A stretch of 24,000 bases of DNA from Pseudomonadota bacterium (GTDB taxonomy: Bacteria; Pseudomonadota; Gammaproteobacteria; Burkholderiales; Burkholderiaceae_C), in the NCBI GenBank assembly GCA_021845505.1, contig JAJZVU010000003.1, positions 90,813-114,812 of the forward strand. Reading direction: 5' to 3'. Positions 6,261 to 13,932 of this stretch are shown one piece after another. The notes under the pieces are model-generated. The model was not told the origin of the DNA. It saw only the letters and a list, made by a program, of their open reading frames with translations, and did not search any database. The position numbers and the translations under genes are program-made. Each line of letters opens with the position of its first letter. The first letter of the stretch is position 1.

Positions 6261-6824
6261 GTGCGACTCGCGCGCGTGATGCTGGCGCTCTGGGCTTCGA
6301 GCCTGGTGGCCGCCTGCTCGTCGATGTTGCCTCACGGCCAGGCCCATACCGACCGGCCGTGGGGCAGCTACGAGCAGGCCAGGCAGGCCTATGTGTCGAT
6401 CGAGCCCGGCCGAACGACCTTCGCCGAGCTGCGCGCCGCCGGTCTCGACCCGACGGCGATTCCCAATGTCAAGCTGCTGAGCTACTCCGACCTGCTGCGC
6501 CGCCTGGTGCCTCCGACCGCCGACATCAGGCTGGATCCGGGAATCCGCGAATGCCTGAACGCCCAGCGCGAGTGCGAGGGCTTCGAGGTCGTGGAGAACC
6601 ATGTCACCCAACAGCGAGTCGGGAACTTCCTGATGGACTTCCTCGACTTCCGCCGCGAGACCCACACCACCGGCTGGAACTTCGACATGGTCGTGCTGGT
6701 GGCTCGCGGTCGCGTGGTCTACAAGACCTGGAGCGGCGAGCCGACCGTGTCGCGGGATTCGTCGACCCGCAACCCGCTCGGCCCGCTGCAGGGATTCGGC
6801 GCCAGCGGGCTGGGTCGGTTCTAG
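6261..6824 (+). CDS. hypothetical lipoprotein
   Basis: GTG at 6261 preceded by AGGGAG (6248-6253). Signal plus lipobox VRLARVMLALWASSLVAAC. No family recognised. The codon pattern looks genuine and not Arg/Ala/Pro-skewed. Confidence 0.6.
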   Translation: MRLARVMLALWASSLVAACSSMLPHGQAHTDRPWGSYEQARQAYVSIEPGRTTFAELRAAGLDPTAIPNVKLLSYSDLLRRLVPPTADIRLDPGIRECLNAQRECEGFEVVENHVTQQRVGNFLMDFLDFRRETHTTGWNFDMVVLVARGRVVYKTWSGEPTVSRDSSTRNPLGPLQGFGASGLGRF

Positions 6825-6867: not shown

Positions 6868-8268
6868 CTACCGCGGCGCCTCGTCGCCCGCGTCGTGGCG
6901 GGGCTGCGCGCCCGCCATGCCGTGGCGCTCCATCATGCGGTACAGCGTGGCGCGCGACACCCCGAGGTCGCGCGCCGCCCGCGCCACGACGTGGCCGTTG
7001 CGCTCCAGCGCCGCGTGGATGGCGTCGCTGGTGGCACGACCGAGCGCGGCGTCCAGCCCGCCGCGGGCAGGCGCGGCCCGACCCTCCACGCCCTCCAGGC
7101 CGAGGTCGGCGACTCCGATGCGGCCACTCTCGCACAGCACGATGGCGCGCCGCACCCGGTTGATGAGCTCGCGGATGTTGCCGGGCCATTCGTGCGCCAG
7201 CAGGGCGTTGCGCGCGCCCTCGTCGAAGCCGCCGATCGGGTGCCGCGCCTCGCCCCGGTAGCGCTGCAGCGCGTACTGCGCGAGCAGCAGCACGTCGTCG
7301 CCGCGCTCGCGCAGCGCCGGCACCTGCAGCTCGATGACACACAGCCGGTGGTACAGGTCGGTACGGAAGCGCGCGGCGCGCTGGGCCTGCAGCAGGTCGA
7401 CATGGGTGGCGGACAGGATGCGCAGGTCCACCGCGATCGGACTGTGTCCGCCCAGGCGCTCGATCTGCCCTTCCTGCAGGAAGCGCAGCAGCCCGACCTG
7501 GGCATCGAGCGGAAGGTCGCCGATTTCGTCGAGCAGCAAGGTGCCGCCGTCGGCCGCCTCGATACGCCCGATGCGGCGCTGCCCGGCTCCGGTGAAAGCG
7601 CCCTTTTCGTGGCCGAACAGCTCGGACTGCAACAAGTGCGGGGGCACCGCGCCGCAATTGATCGCGACAAAGGGCTTGTCGCGCCGCGCCGACAGCCGGT
7701 GGATCGCGCGCGCCACCATCTCCTTGCCGACCCCGGTCTCGCCGGTGATCAGCACGGCGGCGTCGGTCGCCGCCACCCGCTCGAGTTGCGCGCCGAGCCG
7801 CTGCATCACGGCGCTGGCCCCGACCAGTTCGCCGGCCGCGCCCGCGCGGGGCGCGGCCGGCTCGCCGCCCACCTGCTCGAGCAGCCGCAGCCGGCGCTGC
7901 AGGCTGTCCAGCGAAAGCTTCAGCACGTCCTCGCAGACGGGGTCGCGCAAGGTGTCGATGCAATAGCGCAGCGAGAGTTCGGCCAGTTCGTCGAGCTGCC
8001 CGGCCGCGCCGCCCTGCACGCACAGGCCGCGGATGCGAGGCTGCGCCAGCTCGGCGCCCAGCGCGCGCAGCACCGCCGGGTCGTCGACCTCGCGCAGGTC
8101 CAGCAGCACGCCGCACACCCGCTGCGGATGTTCGCGCAACGCCTGGCGCAGCGCCGGCAGGTCCGGTGCCTCCCGCAACGCGAAACCCGCGCCGCGGATC
8201 GCGGCTCGCCAGGCCGGGCAAGCCGGCGCTCCAAACAGCATCAGGCGCATCGGATCGCCCTCGGACAT
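6868..8268 (-). CDS. sigma-54-dependent transcriptional activator (bacterial enhancer-binding protein, Fis-type HTH) with degenerate N-terminal receiver-like domain
   Basis: AAA+ core with Walker A GETGVGKE, sigma-54 contact loop GAFTGA (HEKGAFTGAG), Walker B LLLDEIGD, WPGNIRELIN. C-terminal HTH GVSRATLYRMMERHGM. Start ambiguous: ATG codons end at 8274, 8268 or 8250. GGGAGG (complement of 8276-8281) gives the best spacing for 8268. Confidence 0.9.
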   Translation of the reverse strand: MSEGDPMRLMLFGAPACPAWRAAIRGAGFALREAPDLPALRQALREHPQRVCGVLLDLREVDDPAVLRALGAELAQPRIRGLCVQGGAAGQLDELAELSLRYCIDTLRDPVCEDVLKLSLDSLQRRLRLLEQVGGEPAAPRAGAAGELVGASAVMQRLGAQLERVAATDAAVLITGETGVGKEMVARAIHRLSARRDKPFVAINCGAVPPHLLQSELFGHEKGAFTGAGQRRIGRIEAADGGTLLLDEIGDLPLDAQVGLLRFLQEGQIERLGGHSPIAVDLRILSATHVDLLQAQRAARFRTDLYHRLCVIELQVPALRERGDDVLLLAQYALQRYRGEARHPIGGFDEGARNALLAHEWPGNIRELINRVRRAIVLCESGRIGVADLGLEGVEGRAAPARGGLDAALGRATSDAIHAALERNGHVVARAARDLGVSRATLYRMMERHGMAGAQPRHDAGDEAPR

Positions 8269-8378
8269 TGGCATGCCTCCCGCAAGGCCACGACAAACAG
8301 CGTGGCATGACGGGGATTGTGGAAGCGCCAGAGCTCCGACTTCCCTGATCCATCGCAGCATCGCCGACCGCGGACGGA

Positions 8379-8429
8379 TGTCGCAGCGTCGACACAGCGT
8401 ACGCCGGGGTGTCTCGGCGCCGCGACACC
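8379..8429. promoter_or_regulatory. candidate upstream activator sites (two dyads) for the adjacent enhancer-binding protein
   Basis: TGTC-N8-GACA at 8379-8394 and the near-perfect 22-bp palindrome GGTGTCtcGGCGCCgcGACACC at 8408-8429. Centres are about 32 bp apart, and about 119 and 87 bp upstream of the -24 GG. Function is inferred from position only. Confidence 0.3.
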
Positions 8430-8503
8430 CTGGCACTGCGCCCTGTCCGGCGAGGGTCGGCAAAACCCAATGGTGACAAAGCGTTACGAAGCGCATCGAA
8501 ACG

Positions 8504-8519
8504 TGGCACGGAATTCGCA
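8504..8519 (+). promoter_or_regulatory. sigma-54 (-24/-12) promoter of the fap-like operon
   Basis: TGGCACG-GAAT-TCGCA versus consensus TGGCACG-N4-TTGCW. GG (8505-8506) and GC (8517-8518) are separated by exactly 10 nt. It lies 40 nt upstream of the ATG at 8559 and is divergent from a sigma-54 activator gene. Confidence 0.65.
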
Positions 8520-8558
8520 AGATCCCCGCTGCGAACCATGCCGCCCAACGGAACCGAA

Positions 8559-9173
8559 ATGCCAGCACTGTCCACGTCGATCGCACTGCGCGCCGCCTTC
8601 GCCGCCTGCGCGGCCATGGCCGGACTGCTGGGCAACGCGCGCGCCGGGCAGACGGCGCTGGTGGAGCCCGGTGCCGGCGCCCACAGCGCCGGCCACGTCG
8701 CGCTCAATGTCGCCGCCGGGGTGGGCAACGTCCAGCTCAACCAGGCCGCGCTGGCACCCACCGGCACCGCCGGCGCGACCGTCGAACAAGCGGCGAGCGG
8801 CGGCTCGGCAGGCGCGAGCCTGCGCGCCGCCGTGGGAGCCGGCGCCTTCGCCGGCTCCAGCGGGCTGGTGGCCGTCAACGAGGCCAGCGGCGCGGCCAAC
8901 CTTCAGTCGAACATCGCGCTCTTCGGAGCGCACACCCACGTCGGGATCGCCAGTGACGGCCAACTGGCCACAGCGCTCCCACGTCCGGCGCCGGGCGCAG
9001 GCCCTGCCCCATCGACCGTCAGCAGGATCGTGTCGATCGATCCCGGCGCCTTCCACGGCGCCACGGGCCTGGTGCAGGTCAACCAGACGGCCGGCTCCGG
9101 CAACTCCACCGGCAATGCGTTCATGTTGCAACTGCCGGGTTCTTCCTTGAGCAACTTCAGGAGCATTCCATGA
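8559..9173 (+). CDS. fapB: secreted repeat protein, FapB-like minor/nucleator amyloid subunit
   Basis: Signal peptide MPALSTSIALRAAFAACAAMAGLLGNARA/GQ. Three imperfect repeats: GHVALNVAAGVGNVQLNQAAL, GLVAVNEASGAANLQSNIALF, GLVQVNQTAGSGNSTGNAFML. First gene after the sigma-54 promoter. An alternative ATG at 8538 would leave almost no leader. The stop overlaps the next start (ATGA at 9170-9173). Confidence 0.65.
   Translation: MPALSTSIALRAAFAACAAMAGLLGNARAGQTALVEPGAGAHSAGHVALNVAAGVGNVQLNQAALAPTGTAGATVEQAASGGSAGASLRAAVGAGAFAGSSGLVAVNEASGAANLQSNIALFGAHTHVGIASDGQLATALPRPAPGAGPAPSTVSRIVSIDPGAFHGATGLVQVNQTAGSGNSTGNAFMLQLPGSSLSNFRSIP
8691..8753 (+). repeat. FapB-like protein repeat 1 (GHVALNVAAGVGNVQLNQAAL)
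   Basis: Read directly from the translation; same G-x-[VI]-x-[VL]-N-x-[AT]-[AS]-G-x-x-N-x-x-x-N register as the repeats in the next gene. Confidence 0.7.
8862..8924 (+). repeat. FapB-like protein repeat 2 (GLVAVNEASGAANLQSNIALF)
   Basis: Read directly from the translation. Confidence 0.7.
9066..9128 (+). repeat. FapB-like protein repeat 3 (GLVQVNQTAGSGNSTGNAFML)
   Basis: Read directly from the translation. Confidence 0.65.
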
Positions 9174-9988
9174 ACACTCGATTCACTGCCAGGATCGCCG
9201 CCGTCGCGGTCGCTGCATTGTTCGCAGGGGGCGCTGCGTATGCGAGCGGCCCCGGGGACCACGACGGTCCGGGGCACGGCGACCACGGCGGCATCCTCGT
9301 CAAGGGGCTGATCACCGTCAACGCCGCAGCCGGCGCCAGCACCAACAATGTGCAGAACACCGGCAACGCAGCGGTAGGGCCGTCGTCGATGGACATGGGT
9401 TCGGGCATGGGTTCGGGCATGGACTCGGGCCACGGCCACAACCCGCCTCCCAGTCAGGGTCCGGACATGAACTCGACCATCGGCAACAACGCCGGCCAGA
9501 ACGCCAGCGGCAACATCGCGGTGAACTCGGCCGCAGGCATGCAGAACCTGCAGGCCAATGATGCGTCGGTCGCCCGCATCGCGGCGCAAAGCGTGTTCGG
9601 CAGTGCCAGCGTCGCCAACCTGCAAGGCGCCTCCGGCAACTCGCTGGGTTCGGGCGGCCCGTTCGGCGGCTTCTCGACCAACGCCGCGCTGGGCGACAAC
9701 GCGCTGCACGGCGCGTCGGGCAACATCGCGGTGAACGTCGCGGCAGGCGTGGGCAACGCCCAGTCGAACGGCATGGCGATCACCCAGAGCGCCAACCCGA
9801 CGCTGGCGCTGGCCACCGCCACCAGCGTGCAGCAGGCCAGCGGCAACACCGAGCATGGCAGCTTCACCAACACCGCGTCGATCGGCGGCAACGCGCTGAT
9901 GGGTGCGTCGGGCAACATCGGCGTCAACGTGGCCTCGGGGGTCGGCAACCTGCAGCACAACGGGTTGTCGATGATCGTCGCTCCCTGA
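9170..9988 (+). CDS. fapC: secreted repeat protein, FapC-like major functional-amyloid subunit
   Basis: AGGAG at 9159-9163, ATG at 9170. Signal peptide MNTRFTARIAAVAVAALFAGGAAYA/SG. Three well-conserved ~36-aa repeats ending ASGNIAVNSAAGMQNLQAN, ASGNIAVNVAAGVGNAQSN, ASGNIGVNVASGVGNLQHN, plus one degenerate copy (GLITVNAAAGASTNNVQN). As I recall, Pseudomonas FapC repeats carry GN[IV]GVNVAAGxGNQQxN. Asn/Gln/Gly/Ala/Ser-rich, no Cys. Confidence 0.8.
   Translation: MNTRFTARIAAVAVAALFAGGAAYASGPGDHDGPGHGDHGGILVKGLITVNAAAGASTNNVQNTGNAAVGPSSMDMGSGMGSGMDSGHGHNPPPSQGPDMNSTIGNNAGQNASGNIAVNSAAGMQNLQANDASVARIAAQSVFGSASVANLQGASGNSLGSGGPFGGFSTNAALGDNALHGASGNIAVNVAAGVGNAQSNGMAITQSANPTLALATATSVQQASGNTEHGSFTNTASIGGNALMGASGNIGVNVASGVGNLQHNGLSMIVAP
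9395..9430 (+). repeat. 12-bp tandem DNA repeat (atgggttcgggc x2, then atggactcgggc) encoding MGSG-MGSG-MDSG
   Basis: Seen directly: two perfect copies and a third with two substitutions, in frame inside the FapC-like gene. Confidence 0.85.
9473..9580 (+). repeat. FapC-like protein repeat R1 (STIGNNAGQNASGNIAVNSAAGMQNLQANDASVARI)
   Basis: Read directly from the translation; aligns with R2 and R3 without gaps. Confidence 0.8.
9674..9787 (+). repeat. FapC-like protein repeat R2 (STNAALGDNALHGASGNIAVNVAAGVGNAQSNGMAITQ)
   Basis: Read directly from the translation. Confidence 0.8.
9866..9979 (+). repeat. FapC-like protein repeat R3 (TNTASIGGNALMGASGNIGVNVASGVGNLQHNGLSMIV)
   Basis: Read directly from the translation; the repeat runs almost to the C-terminus (…MIVAP). 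Confidence 0.8.
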
Positions 9989-10002
9989 GCCCCGGAGCGG
10001 CC

Positions 10003-10728
10003 ATGCGCGCAAGCCCCGCAGCGTTCCGGCCGAAGGCCGGGCGTCGCGCGCCGCGCGCCGCGTGGCTGGCCGCCGCGCTGCTCGCACTCGGCGTGCGGGC
10101 GGTCGCGGCGGCCCAGTTGCTGCCGGTGCCTGGGCTGCTGGTCTCCAGCGACATGCAGGGGCTGCGCGCGCTGCGCTACGCCAACATGGTCGCGCAGCAG
10201 CGCGACTACAGCTGCGGCGCGGCGGCACTGGCCACCTTGCTCGACTACGGCTACGGCTTTCGCCTCAGCGAGACCCAGACCATCGAGGCGATGCTGCGAC
10301 ATGTCGACCAGCCGGCCGAGGTGCTGCGCAACGGCTTCTCGATGCTCGACATGAAGCGCTATGTCGAGAGCCTGGGCATGCATGCGGTCGGCTTCGACGT
10401 CAACCTGGCCGCGATGCGCCGGCTGCGCATCCCGGTGATCGCGCTGCTCGACGTCGACGGCTACAGCCACTTCGTCGTGGTCAAGAAGGTCGACCACGAC
10501 CTGGTGTTCCTCAGCGACCCCGCGCTGGGCCAGCGCGCGATCGACGTCGACACCTTCGCGCGCGACTGGCACGGCCTGGTGCTGGCGGTGATCGGCAGGC
10601 CCTTCCTGGCCGACTCGCCGCTGCTGCGGGACAACGTCTCGCGGGCCCGCGCTGCCAGCGACTCGCTGCTGCACCAGGCGGTCGCACCGCGGCTGGACTT
10701 CGGCATCCCGCGGGTCGGCACCTTCTGA
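10003..10728 (+). CDS. fapD: stand-alone periplasmic C39-family cysteine peptidase, FapD-like
   Basis: GGAG at 9994-9997. N-terminal signal/anchor RAPRAAWLAAALLALGVRAVAA. Catalytic Cys context QQRDYSCGAAALATLL, His in DVDGYSHFVVVKK, Asp in VFLSDPALG. No fused ABC transporter domain. Confidence 0.85.
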   Translation: MRASPAAFRPKAGRRAPRAAWLAAALLALGVRAVAAAQLLPVPGLLVSSDMQGLRALRYANMVAQQRDYSCGAAALATLLDYGYGFRLSETQTIEAMLRHVDQPAEVLRNGFSMLDMKRYVESLGMHAVGFDVNLAAMRRLRIPVIALLDVDGYSHFVVVKKVDHDLVFLSDPALGQRAIDVDTFARDWHGLVLAVIGRPFLADSPLLRDNVSRARAASDSLLHQAVAPRLDFGIPRVGTF

Positions 10729-10783
10729 CCATCTGCATCGCCGGCCCGCACTTTCCTCTCCTTCCATGCCATCGAGGTGTCCC

Positions 10784-11500
10784 ATGCGCCGACTCCTACC
10801 TTGCGCGGCCCTGCTCGGACTGGGCCTGGCCTGCACCGCCCGCGCCGAAACGGCGGTCCCCCGCATCGTCGCGCTGGACGACGCCCAGCTGGCGCAGGCG
10901 CGCGGCCGCGGACTTCCGGCCGGTCAGGCCATCACCGGGTTCCAGCTCCAGCTGGTTTCGACCTGGATCGCCCCGCAAGGCGCCGTGGGCGCAGCCGGCA
11001 CGGTGCAGGTCGAGGGCCTCGGCGGCGGCCCACCCAGCGTGCGGGTAGCGGGCCAGGCCTCGGGCAACGGAGCGCCGGGCGGCGGCGGACCGGGCAGCGC
11101 CAGCGGCGGGCTGCCGGTGCAGGGCGTCGGCCAGCTGACCCAGGTCGCGGGCGACGCCAACCAGGGCTACAACCGCTTCACCCTGCGACTGGTCGACACC
11201 TCCACGGGCCTGCCCGCGCTGTCCGCCGGCTCGCTCGGCGCGTCGTACGCCGGCCGGGGAACCAGCGCCAGCGTCGCAGGCGACGGCCATGGCGGACTGG
11301 TCGTGGCCATCTCGACCCCGGCGGGCTCGGCGCTGCAATCGGTGGGCGGCGTGGGATCCTTCACCCAGGCGCTGCGCATCGTCGGCAACGGCCAGAGGGT
11401 GGACAACAGCGCGGTGCTCACCGTGCTCACCCGCAGCGCGCCGGGACTCGGCGCCGCCGGATTGCTGAGCACCCTGCAGAACATGATTCCCCGCCACTGA
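10784..11500 (+). CDS. fapE: secreted Gly/Ala-rich protein, FapE-like by position
   Basis: GAGG at 10774-10777, ATG at 10784. Signal peptide MRRLLPCAALLGLGLACTARA/ET. 238 aa, with a Gly-rich centre. Assigned only from its slot between the C39 peptidase and the outer-membrane protein; I cannot verify sequence similarity to FapE from memory. Confidence 0.5.
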   Translation: MRRLLPCAALLGLGLACTARAETAVPRIVALDDAQLAQARGRGLPAGQAITGFQLQLVSTWIAPQGAVGAAGTVQVEGLGGGPPSVRVAGQASGNGAPGGGGPGSASGGLPVQGVGQLTQVAGDANQGYNRFTLRLVDTSTGLPALSAGSLGASYAGRGTSASVAGDGHGGLVVAISTPAGSALQSVGGVGSFTQALRIVGNGQRVDNSAVLTVLTRSAPGLGAAGLLSTLQNMIPRH

Positions 11501-11508
11501 GCCCGCCG

Positions 11509-12774
11509 ATGAAACCCGCACGACTGGCCGCCAGCGCGGCCCCTCTGTTCCTGTTCCTGCTCGGCAACGCGCTGGCCGATGCGCCGCCCGACGCCGATGC
11601 GCTGGCGCGGCTGCAGCAGCAGGTGCAGGATCTCACGCGCCGCGTCGCGCAGCAGCAGCAGGAGATCGTCGACTTGCGCGCGCGCATGCCGGCGCAGCCC
11701 GCGCAGCAGGCCGCCGCCCAACCCGGCCCGCCCCCGGCAGCCGGCCCGCAGGCCGTTGCGGCAGCGCCCGCGCAGGCCGCGCCTGCGCTGGCCACCTCGC
11801 GCCAGGACGCCGCCTCCGAGGCCGCGCAAAGTCCCGCCGAGGTCGCGGCGCAGGGCCACGCGCCCCAGTTCCAGCATCGGCTGACCCTGACCGCCGGCTG
11901 GAGCGACACCTACTACGACCGCCGGCAGCTCGCGCTCAGCGGCTTCCTGGCGCTCGATGCCATCTTCCTGGGCAACATCTCGGTGGCGCAGACCAAGGCG
12001 CATGTCGAGACCTTCGACCTGGCCATGCAGTACGGCCTGAGCGACGACCTCGCGCTCAACTTCGACCTGCCCTACGTGGTGCGCAACAGCCGCTTCCTGA
12101 GCGCCGGGCAGAACGCCTCGACGTCGGCGATCAGCGAGGCCTCGGTGACCAACGCCGACGTCGGCGACGTCACCTTCGGCGCCGACTACCGGCTGATCCG
12201 CGAGCACGGCGACATCCCCGATGTGGTCGCGTCGCTGAAGGTCACCGCGCCCACCGGCACCTCGCCCTTCGGCATCGCCGTGGTGCAACCCGACCCGCAG
12301 AACACCAACCTGCAGGTTCCCCAGCGCCTGCCCACCGGCAACGGCGTGTGGACCATCAACCCCAGCGTGTCGGTGCTCAAGAGCCGCGACCCGGTGGTGC
12401 TGTTCGGCAACATCGGCTATGTCTACAACGTGGCGCGCGACGTGGCGGTGATCAACCCGGCCTCGATCGACGGCCCGGGGCGGGTCAAGCTGGGCGACGG
12501 CATCCAGCTGGGCGGCGGCTTCGCCGTGGTGCTCAACGAGCGCGCGTCGATCAGCACCAGCATCGCCGGACTGTTCTCCCGCGCCACCGAGGTGCGTCTG
12601 CCCGGGCAGGGCTGGCAGTCGGTCAACGGCAGCGCCAGCGCCAGTGTCTCGCTGGGCTTCGGGCTGAACTACGCGCTCAGCCGCCACCTCACCCTCAGCG
12701 CCATGCTGCAGGCCGGGCTGACCCCGGATACGCCCAATTACGCGCTGTCCATCCGCTTTCCCTACGTGTTCTGA
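11509..12774 (+). CDS. fapF: outer-membrane beta-barrel secretion channel with N-terminal coiled coil, FapF-like
   Basis: ATG at 11509 within ORF 10777-12774 (the upstream part overlaps fapE-like out of frame). Signal peptide MKPARLAASAAPLFLFLLGNALA/DA. Heptad-like segment DALARLQQQVQDLTRRVAQQQQEIVDLRARM, then a Pro/Ala/Gln-rich linker of about 60 aa. Alternating-polarity strands follow (GDVTFGADYRL, ASLKVTAPTG) and the protein ends in the OMP-type C-terminus IRFPYVF. Confidence 0.75.
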   Translation: MKPARLAASAAPLFLFLLGNALADAPPDADALARLQQQVQDLTRRVAQQQQEIVDLRARMPAQPAQQAAAQPGPPPAAGPQAVAAAPAQAAPALATSRQDAASEAAQSPAEVAAQGHAPQFQHRLTLTAGWSDTYYDRRQLALSGFLALDAIFLGNISVAQTKAHVETFDLAMQYGLSDDLALNFDLPYVVRNSRFLSAGQNASTSAISEASVTNADVGDVTFGADYRLIREHGDIPDVVASLKVTAPTGTSPFGIAVVQPDPQNTNLQVPQRLPTGNGVWTINPSVSVLKSRDPVVLFGNIGYVYNVARDVAVINPASIDGPGRVKLGDGIQLGGGFAVVLNERASISTSIAGLFSRATEVRLPGQGWQSVNGSASASVSLGFGLNYALSRHLTLSAMLQAGLTPDTPNYALSIRFPYVF

Positions 12775-12780
12775 AGCCTG

Positions 12781-13077
12781 TTGAAGCGCCGCCGGGGGTG
12801 CGACGCGGGGCCGGCTCAGCGCGCGGCTGCGTCGTTGCGGCTGGCCGGCAACGGCACCATGACCGCGCTGGGCCTGCTGCGCGCGGACAAGCGAGTCTGG
12901 GTGGTGGGCAATGCCAGCGGTTCGCGCCGCCCGGCCGACCACGCGGCGGCGATGGACAGGCTGTCTCGCGCCGGCGCCACGGTCGTGAGCCACGAGATGG
13001 TGCTGTTCGAGTGGCTGGCCGACTGCCGGCACCCGCGCTTTCGGGAAGTGCTGGCGCTGCTCAAGTCCGCCGGCTGA
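12781..13077 (+). pseudogene. 3' remnant of an isochorismatase-family hydrolase gene
   Basis: Only the C-terminal part of the fold is recognisable (TALGLLRADKRVWVVGNASGSRRPADHAAAMDRLSRAGATVVSHEMVLFEWLADCRHPRFREVL). The catalytic Asp/Lys/Cys-bearing N-terminal half is absent. The frame is closed upstream by the fapF-like stop at 12772-12774. There is no SD, and the only start candidates are a TTG at 12781 and an internal ATG at 12856. Confidence 0.5.
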
Positions 13078-13086
13078 GCGCGGCGA

Positions 13087-13932
13087 TCAAGGGCTGGCGG
13101 CGCCCTTCAACAGGTGCACATGACGGTGCATGAACTGCCGTAGACGCTGGTCCTGCGGGGCATCGAACACCGTCTTCGGCGGCCCTTGTTCGGCGATCAC
13201 GCCATCGGCGAAAAAGACCACGCGATCGGCAACCTCTCGCGCGAACAGCAGTTCATGGGTCACCAGAATCATGGTCATGCCATCCCGCGCCAGATCGTGC
13301 ATGACCTGCAAGACCTCGCCGACCAGTTCCGGATCGAGCGCCGACGTCACTTCGTCGAACAGGATGATCGCCGGATTCATCGCGAGAGCCCTTGCGATCG
13401 CCACGCGCTGCTGCTGTCCCCCCGACAACGTGGCCGGATAGGCGGAGCATTTCATTCCCAACCCCACTCGCTCGAGCAGCTTCTTGCCGCAGCTCTCGGC
13501 TTCCGGGCGGGACTTCCCCAGGACATGCACCGGCCCCAGCGTGACATTGTCGATCACGCGCAGATGCGGGAAGAGATTGAAGGACTGAAACACCATGCCG
13601 ACGCGCGTGCGCAGCTCCTTGTTCTCCCTTTCCGAACAGCGGCGCCGCGCCCCGGAGGCCTCGGCTCGGTATCCGACCAACTTGCCCTCGATATGGATCT
13701 CCCCCGCGTCGTACTCTTCGAGGAAATTCAGACAGCGCAAGAAAGTGGTCTTCCCGGATCCGCTGGCCCCGATGATCGCGATCACCTCCCCCGCGTACAC
13801 GTCCAGATCCACCCCCCGCAACACCTCGTGCTCCGCGTAGCGCTTTCGCAATCCGCGCACGGCGATCAGCGGCTGCGTCGCCGCCCTCTGCTCGGCAGGC
13901 GCCACGCCTCGGTCCAAGGCCGATTCCAGCAT
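13087..13932 (-). CDS. polar amino acid ABC transporter ATP-binding protein (GlnQ/HisP-like)
   Basis: Start at MLESALD (13932) within ORF 13087-14196. Walker A GASGSGKTT, Q-loop MVFQSFNLFPHL, signature LSGGQQQRVAIARAL, Walker B ILFDEVTSALD, H-loop LVTHE. Confidence 0.9.
   Translation of the reverse strand: MLESALDRGVAPAEQRAATQPLIAVRGLRKRYAEHEVLRGVDLDVYAGEVIAIIGASGSGKTTFLRCLNFLEEYDAGEIHIEGKLVGYRAEASGARRRCSERENKELRTRVGMVFQSFNLFPHLRVIDNVTLGPVHVLGKSRPEAESCGKKLLERVGLGMKCSAYPATLSGGQQQRVAIARALAMNPAIILFDEVTSALDPELVGEVLQVMHDLARDGMTMILVTHELLFAREVADRVVFFADGVIAEQGPPKTVFDAPQDQRLRQFMHRHVHLLKGAASP

Follow-up and report, generated by a model that had tools for sequence, protein, structure and literature searches.

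A predicted fapBCDEF functional-amyloid operon with a divergent BrfA-like sigma-54 activator gene in a high-GC lineage of the Pseudomonadota

We analyzed a 24,000-nucleotide (nt) stretch of contig JAJZVU010000003.1 (assembly GCA_021845505.1, from a bacterium of the Pseudomonadota), hereafter referred to as the window, in which five consecutive genes resemble the functional-amyloid operon fap of Pseudomonas. The evidence indicates, with high confidence, that positions 8269–12774 hold a complete and selectively maintained fapBCDEF operon, accompanied by a divergent gene for a BrfA-like sigma-54 activator at 6868–8268. The operon has the canonical fapBCDEF form and its regulatory design is already known from Pseudomonas. 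The differences in the FapF residues and in the cysteines and N-terminus of FapC, which are described below, are branch-specific details and do not constitute a new kind of system.

In a search against NCBIfam, each of the five proteins matched its respective Fap model over nearly the full model length, with no better alternative, at E values of 4.9e-16 (FapB), 1.3e-19 (FapC), 6.9e-54 (C39_FapD), 1e-15 (FapE) and 2e-98 (FapF). On this sequence evidence, the five proteins are assigned as FapB, FapC, FapD, FapE and FapF, in that order. A first-pass annotation of the window had read the locus as a Fap-type operon from its gene order and domain logic, had proposed this comparison with the curated Fap families, and had called the system a variant of a known one, not wholly new. 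The profile search, together with the matches of FapF and FapC to solved Pseudomonas structures, bears out the first reading, and the family matches and the published fapBCDEF layouts bear out the last.

The tight packing noted in that annotation is exact. The open reading frames (ORFs), all on the forward strand, span 8559 (or 8538)–9173, 9170–9988, 10003–10728, 10784–11500, and 11509–12774; fapB and fapC overlap by an ATGA at 9170–9173, and the subsequent intergenic gaps are 14, 55, and 8 nt. A search for FapF relatives showed that the arrangement recurs in 346 species genomes, and the gene order is conserved in four sister lineages known from metagenome-assembled genomes (MAGs) and in about 70 Burkholderiaceae loci. 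Since every gene has a significant family match and the arrangement recurs in so many species genomes, the layout is more than a product of chance. The operon has a G+C fraction of 0.68–0.75 and its native flanks one of about 0.72, in agreement with the value of about 70% given before; the accompanying view that a non-Pseudomonas host is a departure was put too strongly. Fap systems are common outside Pseudomonas, and many of the 346 species genomes belong to Burkholderiaceae.

Compared with a relative whose FapF is 94% identical, the ratio of nonsynonymous to synonymous substitution rates (dN/dS) was 0.27 for fapB, 0.21 for fapC, 0.11 for fapD, 0.30 for fapE, 0.22 for fapF, and 0.40 for the regulator. 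All six genes are real and are maintained under purifying selection. The identities to the P. fluorescens proteins are 32% for FapB, 29% for FapC, 40% for FapD, 30.5% for FapE, and 36% for FapF, a span of 29–40% that falls within the published range for homologues outside Pseudomonadales (PMC3792158). The FapF sequence is found in identical form in MAG GCA_021849335.1 and in an ENA contig; its closest relatives come from other MAGs (65–94% identity), and the nearest named ones from Pandoraea, Burkholderia, Paraburkholderia, and Trinickia (42–51%). A search with a flanking Cys/Met PLP enzyme, intended to place the lineage, gave only metagenomic, "Proteobacteria bacterium", Longimicrobium, and Gemmatimonadota matches, at approximately 80% identity. 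Long ORFs on the opposite strand of the operon, such as 8903–10228(-), were rejected as high-GC artefacts, the family matches and the purifying selection being those of the forward frames.

For FapB (8559–9173, or from the alternative start at 8538; 204 amino acids (aa)), which is predicted to be a minor amyloid subunit or nucleator, the NCBIfam match covers model positions 11–186 of 190. The protein is the shorter of the two repeat proteins, is encoded directly upstream of fapC, and contains three degenerate, imperfect repeats, SAGHVALNVAAGVGNVQLN, SSGLVAVNEASGAANLQSN, and ATGLVQVNQTAGSGNSTGN (nt 8685–8753, 8856–8924, and 9060–9128). For FapC (9170–9988; 272 aa, no Cys), the predicted major amyloid subunit, the strict motif GNI[AG]VN[VS]A[AS]GxxNxQxN occurs in three copies, at aa 114, 184, and 248 (nt 9503–9571, 9713–9781, and 9905–9973), in keeping with three imperfect repeats of the GNxGxNxAAGxGNxQxN type. 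Both repeat proteins had been described as built from the strict core; this is correct for the second protein and only loosely true for the first, in which all copies are degenerate. The three FapC repeats are the best-conserved parts of the protein in the alignment of the clade, and they align to the solved fibril: FapC matches the sequences of the FapC fibrils in PDB entries 9NQD and 9U4U with an E value of about 1e-11 (1.3e-11). A local Pfam scan recognized only Peptidase_C39 and Phenol_MetA_deg among the operon proteins and gave no match for FapB, FapC, or FapE; in the annotation precomputed for the public contig of identical sequence, PF27129 (FapBC) is assigned to both repeat proteins.

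Upstream of these repeats, FapC has a clade-conserved pseudo-repeat (9302–9370), and the N-terminus of the mature protein (9248–9292) is rich in His and Asp, reading GDHDGPGHGDHGG in the window, HHHHHHEH in the related locus L010, and GHDGHDGHD in L009. A (MGSG)n linker (9389–9439) is encoded by a 12-nt tandem repeat (9394–9430, 3.1 copies), and a near-identical metagenome contig (L006) has one repeat unit fewer, so that its FapC is 268 instead of 272 aa long. These features point to possible metal binding and to a length polymorphism of the linker. They also raise the question of whether a Fap-like machinery here exports repeat proteins that are not amyloid, such as a metal-binding surface layer or an adhesin. 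The conservation of a His/Asp-rich N-terminus in the clade, the Met/Gly/Ser repeats, and the replacement of FapF gating residues described below would all be compatible with such a role, and the single-sequence AlphaFold2 (AF2) model of FapC, with a predicted local distance difference test (pLDDT) score of 35, is uninformative on the fold. We nevertheless consider this explanation improbable, given that the repeats of the cross-beta core are the best-conserved ones and align to the solved fibril, and that the additional N-terminal features lie in a region known to be variable (PMC3792158), where they could confer an extra property while amyloid formation is retained.

For FapD (10003–10728; 241 aa), the Pfam match to Peptidase_C39 (E = 2.6e-23) supports the earlier description as a stand-alone C39 cysteine peptidase, which is predicted to be periplasmic. 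The putative catalytic residues Cys71 (YSCGAAAL), His156 (YSHFVVV), and Asp172 (LSDPALG) align with those of P. fluorescens FapD. For FapE (10784–11500; 238 aa), a predicted minor fibre component, the family match covers model positions 15–225 of 247. As described before, the protein is Gly-rich (18.9% Gly) and appears to be secreted, and its conserved N-terminal region contains the motif LDDAQLAQARGRG (nt 10874–10912), for which the P. fluorescens counterpart is LNDAQMAELRGR; the motif in common is LDDAQLAQARGR. The Sec-type N-termini of all five Fap proteins were judged by eye.

The peptidase and the barrel protein also match the NCBIfam models pilus_FilB (E = 1.5e-29) and pilus_FilC (E = 2e-14), respectively, as would be expected if the locus encoded a Fil-type "putative pilus" system instead of Fap. 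The scores differ greatly, at 182 bits for FapD vs 103 bits for FilB and 330 bits for FapF vs 54 bits for FilC. In addition, the three substrate proteins match only Fap models, and the matches in the PDB are to FapF and FapC. A Fil-type system is therefore scarcely credible.

For FapF (11509–12774; 421 aa), the predicted outer-membrane amyloid secretion channel, the NCBIfam match extends over the full length. The sequence is ordered as a signal peptide, a coiled-coil helix (aa 27–60), an Ala/Pro-rich linker, a short helix (aa 109–114), and a beta-barrel (approximately aa 125–421), with two PTG motifs. It matches the crystal structures of FapF from Pseudomonas UK4 (PDB 5O65, 5O67, and 5O68) with an E value of 4e-68 over residues 103–421. 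The AF2 model, built with 18 homologues, has a pLDDT of 71.7, with most of the barrel above 80, and shows a signal helix, a long helix at 29–59, and a disordered Ala/Pro linker at 60–106 ahead of the barrel. In a Foldseek search with this model, the top 18 matches were all FapF chains, with template-modelling (TM) scores of 0.86–0.92 (target-normalised) and root-mean-square deviations of 2.3–2.6 Å; the TM score for 5O67 was 0.91. These results agree with the earlier reading of an outer-membrane barrel preceded by a coiled coil, and the succession of coiled coil, linker, plug helix, and barrel that typifies FapF, whose barrel has 12 strands, is recognized on the level of the fold.

A search with a FapA hidden Markov model (HMM) through 1017 ORFs of at least 40 aa, taken from the window and from the loci of four sister MAGs, detected no fapA gene (best E ≥ 2); as a control, an HMM built from Burkholderiaceae FapA only recovered P. 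fluorescens FapA at 1.6e-5. The regulator gene and fapB are separated by 290 bp, and the sigma-54 promoter described below ends 39 bp before the fapB ATG, so that there is no room for a gene between the two. The first-pass statement that no fapA lies between the promoter and the first amyloid gene thus stands for the locus, but not as a departure from the known system. fapA is missing in 6 of 16 genera, the deviation seen most often (Dueholm et al., PMC3792158). A GTDB screen of 2025 assigned more than 90% of 1602 clusters to either fapABCDEF or fapBCDEF and found three repeats to be nearly universal in both FapB and FapC (PMC12822426). Because FapA is regarded as dispensable for fibre formation and is often absent (PMC3792158, PMC12822426), its absence does not exclude membership in the Fap family.

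In 65–66 loci of Burkholderiaceae, the promoter is followed by two small secreted ORFs before fapB begins; the proximal one is FapA (NCBIfam chaperone_FapA, E = 8.6e-11), and the distal one is here termed X. Neither was found at the fap locus of the window and the four sister lineages. ORF X, which is unannotated and encodes approximately 120–175 aa, precedes fapA, on the downstream side of the sigma-54 promoter, in the loci of Pandoraea, Burkholderia, Paraburkholderia, and Trinickia (for example L036:4805–5170 and L013:4939–5463, and about 65 other loci), and is missing from the loci of the window clade and P. fluorescens. It has no Pfam or NCBIfam match, and its conserved C-terminus reads ...ALDDEVLSRQRGR...VTLWDE...PLPIPVD...Y.RK. 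ORF X may be an unrecognised seventh fap gene. A relationship to FapE as a paralogue was not established, as only a 13-residue motif is shared (12.7 bits); the sole pattern in common with the FapE N-terminus is LDDxxLxxxRGR.

The loss of FapA, together with a deletion next to the operon, could alternatively mean that the operon is being lost and is now a decaying or silent remnant. Both fapA and X are present in all of the 65–66 Burkholderiaceae loci with enough upstream sequence, and a deletion of about 2.7 kb and a foreign island begin directly after fapF. We regard decay as very improbable, since neither the five ORFs nor the regulator is disrupted (dN/dS 0.11–0.40), lineages with FapF identities of no more than 65–75% share the layout without fapA, and the promoter and the candidate activator sites are conserved. 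Moreover, Pseudomonas can form fibres without fapA, and the fapBCDEF layout is among the canonical ones in nature (PMC3792158, PMC12822426).

Ahead of the first fap gene, the sequence TGGCACGGAATTCGCA (8504–8519, forward strand) has the GG-N10-GC spacing of a sigma-54 (-24/-12) promoter, with one mismatch to the consensus. Almost all of the related loci, about 70 in number, have the pattern TGGCA[CT]-N5-TCGC[ATG] ahead of their first operon gene. Sites of this quality are rare: 3.04 Mb of locus sequence, counted on both strands, holds only 65, some two-thirds being the fap promoters, and the background is approximately 0.006 per kb. In the P. fluorescens locus L088, an equivalent -24/-12 element, CGGCACGCCTTCTGCT, lies upstream of fapA, and the RpoN promoter of fapA in P. 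fluorescens PF07 has been mapped by 5' rapid amplification of cDNA ends (5'-RACE; PMC9207406). No sigma-70-like site was found in 8100–13300.

Approximately 80–125 bp upstream of the -24 element, two palindromes are found at 8379–8394 (TGTCGCAGCGTCGACA) and 8410–8427 (TGTCTCGGCGCCGCGACA), which correspond to the inverted repeats I1, I2, and I8. The form GTCTCG-N4-YGCGAC occurs at about -93 in the window and in the related loci L005, L009, and L012, with a variant in L010, and the background of GTC-N10-GAC is 0.06 per 260 bp. These palindromes are candidate activator-binding sites. The palindrome is absent from the Burkholderiaceae loci, and it was rejected as an activator site in common with them.

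The candidate activator itself is a sigma-54 enhancer-binding protein (EBP) of 466 aa, encoded at 6868–8268 on the reverse strand, divergently from the operon. It matches the Pfam families Sigma54_activat (E = 5e-67), AAA_lid_14, and HTH_8, and GAFTGA, Walker A, and Walker B motifs are seen in its sequence. A longer ORF reaching to 8586 was rejected as an over-extension, the gene call of the public assembly and a GGAGG before the ATG fixing the start at 8268. Over the AAA+ and helix-turn-helix part (349 aa), the protein is 49% identical to the regulator at the BrfA position of P. fluorescens L088, and in phmmer searches it scores 303–367 bits with fap-linked regulators vs at most 265 bits with solved EBPs.

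A homologous EBP gene flanks fap in every related locus with enough flanking sequence. The gene lies divergently ahead of fap in the window and in L005 and L010, and behind fap in convergent orientation in L009 and L012. In Pandoraea, where the loci have a single EBP, it precedes fap on the same strand. In Burkholderia, Paraburkholderia, and Trinickia (L021–L087), fap has an EBP paralogue on each side, a divergent one upstream and another one downstream, for example at L036:2874–4277(-) and 10998–12473(+). In P. fluorescens L088, fapABCDEF is followed by a convergent gene for a 441-aa EBP with a VpsR-type N-domain. In P. fluorescens PF07, the adjacent reverse gene brfA encodes an EBP that senses cyclic di-GMP (c-di-GMP) and is required for fap expression (PMC9207406, PMC13101488). 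The first-pass annotation had counted a sigma-54 regulator of its own among the departures of the operon. The regulator is present; BrfA and the RpoN-dependent -24/-12 promoter of P. fluorescens, as in L088, show that it is not a departure. No description of sigma-54 control of fap outside Pseudomonas was found in the literature searched.

Adjacency in itself could mislead, and the EBP might be a mere neighbour that controls something else, with the operon read from another promoter. The central AAA+ domains of EBPs are generally 40–50% identical, so that an identity of 49% to BrfA is no proof of orthology; furthermore, the best curated match of the regulator is to a different family (PEP_resp_reg), and its side and strand vary between lineages. 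On the other hand, a homologous EBP adjoins fap in every clade examined, Pseudomonas included, the conserved -24/-12 site is the only good promoter-like element, and a sigma-54 promoter requires an EBP, the adjacent one being needed for fap expression in P. fluorescens (PMC9207406). An unrelated neighbour is thus unlikely, and we favor the reading in which this EBP is the candidate fap activator.

Genes for diguanylate cyclases (GGDEF/GGEEF) adjoin fap at L009:5314–6369, L012:3202–4302, and L010:3203–4642, and in L009 and L012 the cyclase gene is separated from fapB by a conserved ORF of approximately 90 aa. No GGDEF gene was found in the window. The GGDEF genes in these sister loci suggest a linkage of fap to c-di-GMP.

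Several observations weigh against the favored explanation, and they concern the family scores, FapC, FapF, FapA, and the regulator. First, the NCBIfam scores are all well below the curated equivalog cut-offs, for example 59 vs 190 bits for FapB, 71 vs 195 bits for FapC, and 330 vs 700 bits for FapF. Because they are so far below, the window system is best placed, by sequence, as a distant branch of the Fap family. Second, the CxxC with which P. fluorescens FapC ends is missing from the window FapC. Third, the key residues of UK4 FapF are replaced: E98 by Q, F103 by Q, E111 by T, R157 by Q, F325 by V, F335 by T, F367 by L, and K401 by R, the positions compared in the window protein being aa 115, 120, 128, 174, 340, 350, 382, and 416, respectively, and the alignment of the plug region to UK4 being uncertain. 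The plug salt bridge E98–K401, the pair E111–R157, and the trimer ladder F325/F335/F367 are thereby not kept, with Q/R, T/Q, and V/T/L in the window; the window protein retains only the K401 positive charge (as R416) and both PTG motifs. Since the UK4 residues are not conserved, the plug gating and trimer packing of the window FapF may differ from those of UK4. Fourth, a fapA gene possibly lies elsewhere in the genome, outside the locus. Finally, the N-domain of the regulator is collinear with the BrfA/VpsR-like N-domain with only weak similarity (hhalign E = 5.8e-5, probability 66%), and the regulator has no VpsR match in Pfam. Because of this weak match and the missing Pfam match, c-di-GMP sensing by the window regulator is a guess by analogy. 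More generally, we infer fibril formation, secretion, and regulation from homology.

The residues highlighted in UK4 FapF do not define the family, because Burkholderiaceae FapFs are also without the Phe ladder. The trimer-interface ladder is aliphatic (L/I/V/T) in all of the betaproteobacterial-type FapFs compared, and the E111–R157 pair is D–R in Burkholderiaceae and jointly T and Q in the window clade.

Based on the export and assembly mechanism described for Pseudomonas (PMC5557850, PMC12822426), the window system would function as follows. The activator, possibly responsive to c-di-GMP by analogy with BrfA, would bind the palindromes at approximately 8379–8427 and spend ATP to open the RpoN promoter at 8504–8519. 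All five Fap proteins, whose signal-like N-termini are visible, would reach the periplasm via Sec. FapF, which is trimeric in Pseudomonas, would form a plugged outer-membrane barrel with a periplasmic coiled coil, a fold supported by both the sequence and the model matches. FapD, with its intact Cys/His/Asp triad, may make a cleavage needed for export, possibly at the FapE N-terminus or the FapF linker, and unfolded FapB, FapC, and FapE would then pass through FapF. At the cell surface, FapB would nucleate and FapC would polymerise via its three imperfect N/Q/G/A repeats into cross-beta fibres, while FapE would serve as a minor or anchoring constituent. As in many natural fapBCDEF systems, the process would do without a FapA chaperone.

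These comparisons lead us to a wider proposal in two parts, which we put forward tentatively and regard as somewhat doubtful when both parts are taken together. First, a sigma-54 promoter with a BrfA-type activator would be the ancestral and near-universal control of Fap in Pseudomonas, Burkholderiaceae, and the window clade, described so far only for Pseudomonas, and the window clade would have been rewired with a palindrome of its own and a diverged sensory domain. Second, the window clade would have a five-gene machine with no periplasmic chaperone against aggregation, be it FapA or X, with a FapF lacking the plug salt bridges and the Phe ladder and a FapC that has gained a His/Asp-rich, possibly metal-binding N-terminus. 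If so, such a minimal machine would imply different means of keeping the subunits soluble and of gating the pore. The occurrence of an RpoN promoter and a BrfA-like activator at fap loci well beyond Pseudomonas offers a testable general model of how Fap is switched on. The results also add another uncultured, high-GC proteobacterial lineage that is probably able to build a Fap amyloid biofilm matrix. They further indicate that the NCBIfam equivalog models are drawn too narrowly for members this distant to be named, which is why Burkholderiaceae homologues are mostly called "hypothetical protein" and the proteins of close MAG relatives are unnamed. The current understanding of Fap is not overturned.

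Downstream of the operon, a 98-aa ORF at 12775–13077 is the 3' remnant of an isochorismatase-family gene that is intact in L005 (189 aa), where residues 119–189 are 94% identical to it. In comparison with L005, the window has a deletion of about 2.7 kb that removes HpaB, a TetR regulator, and two-thirds of the isochorismatase gene from its 5' end, and the junction lies about 70 nt past the fapF stop. A block of lower GC follows from 13087 to approximately 19100 (0.60–0.65 vs about 0.72), which encodes an amino-acid ABC transporter (ATPase, two permeases, and binding protein), a 571-aa class-III aminotransferase, and a LysR regulator. Since it is missing at the same position in L005, which is 94% identical, the block is probably a horizontally acquired insertion. 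On the other side, a predicted 187-aa lipoprotein with an LVAAC lipobox and no family match is encoded at 6261–6824, flanked by the genes for a nitroreductase and the fap regulator; it was rejected as part of the fap system, as it is conserved only in the nearest relative and is probably unrelated to fap. An Rfam scan of the window found no rRNA or other Rfam family.

Compared with fapABCDEF of Pseudomonas (UK4, PAO1, and PF07), the window has the same B–C–D–E–F order and five families, three repeats in FapB and FapC, a C39-type FapD, a FapF with coiled coil and barrel, and a -24/-12 promoter with an adjacent EBP. In contrast, it lacks fapA, its proteins are only 29–40% identical, its FapC is without CxxC and has a His/Asp-rich N-terminus, and the plug salt-bridge and Phe-ladder residues of its FapF are replaced. 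The regulator gene lies divergently upstream of the operon, whereas in Pseudomonas it follows fap in convergent orientation, and the N-domain of the window regulator has diverged strongly. Likewise, BrfA of PF07 and the window regulator are both AAA+ sigma-54 activators with GAFTGA and a Fis-type helix-turn-helix that adjoin fap, are paired with a -24/-12 promoter, and are 49% identical in the AAA+/helix-turn-helix part, whereas the similarity of the N-terminal sensory domains is marginal and the gene positions differ. From the natural fapBCDEF operons (PMC3792158, PMC12822426), which have the identical gene content and order and three repeats in FapB and FapC, the window shows no difference in kind.

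The Burkholderiaceae fap loci, which contain the closest named homologues of all five proteins, share the promoter core TGGCA[CT]-N5-TCGC and flanking EBPs with the window, whereas they have fapA and X upstream, often two EBP paralogues, and a FapC of about 460 aa. The window clade is set apart from them by the lack of X and fapA and by an upstream palindrome of its own. The Fil putative pilus system has a distantly related C39 peptidase and outer-membrane protein, with scores far weaker than those of Fap, and the window substrates are of the Fap type. Curli (csgBAC/csgDEFG) resembles the window system in having a secreted nucleator and a major subunit, imperfect N/Q-rich repeats, and extracellular polymerisation. 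Its machinery is unrelated: the window has no homologues of CsgG, CsgE, or CsgF and uses a FapF-type barrel and a C39 peptidase instead.

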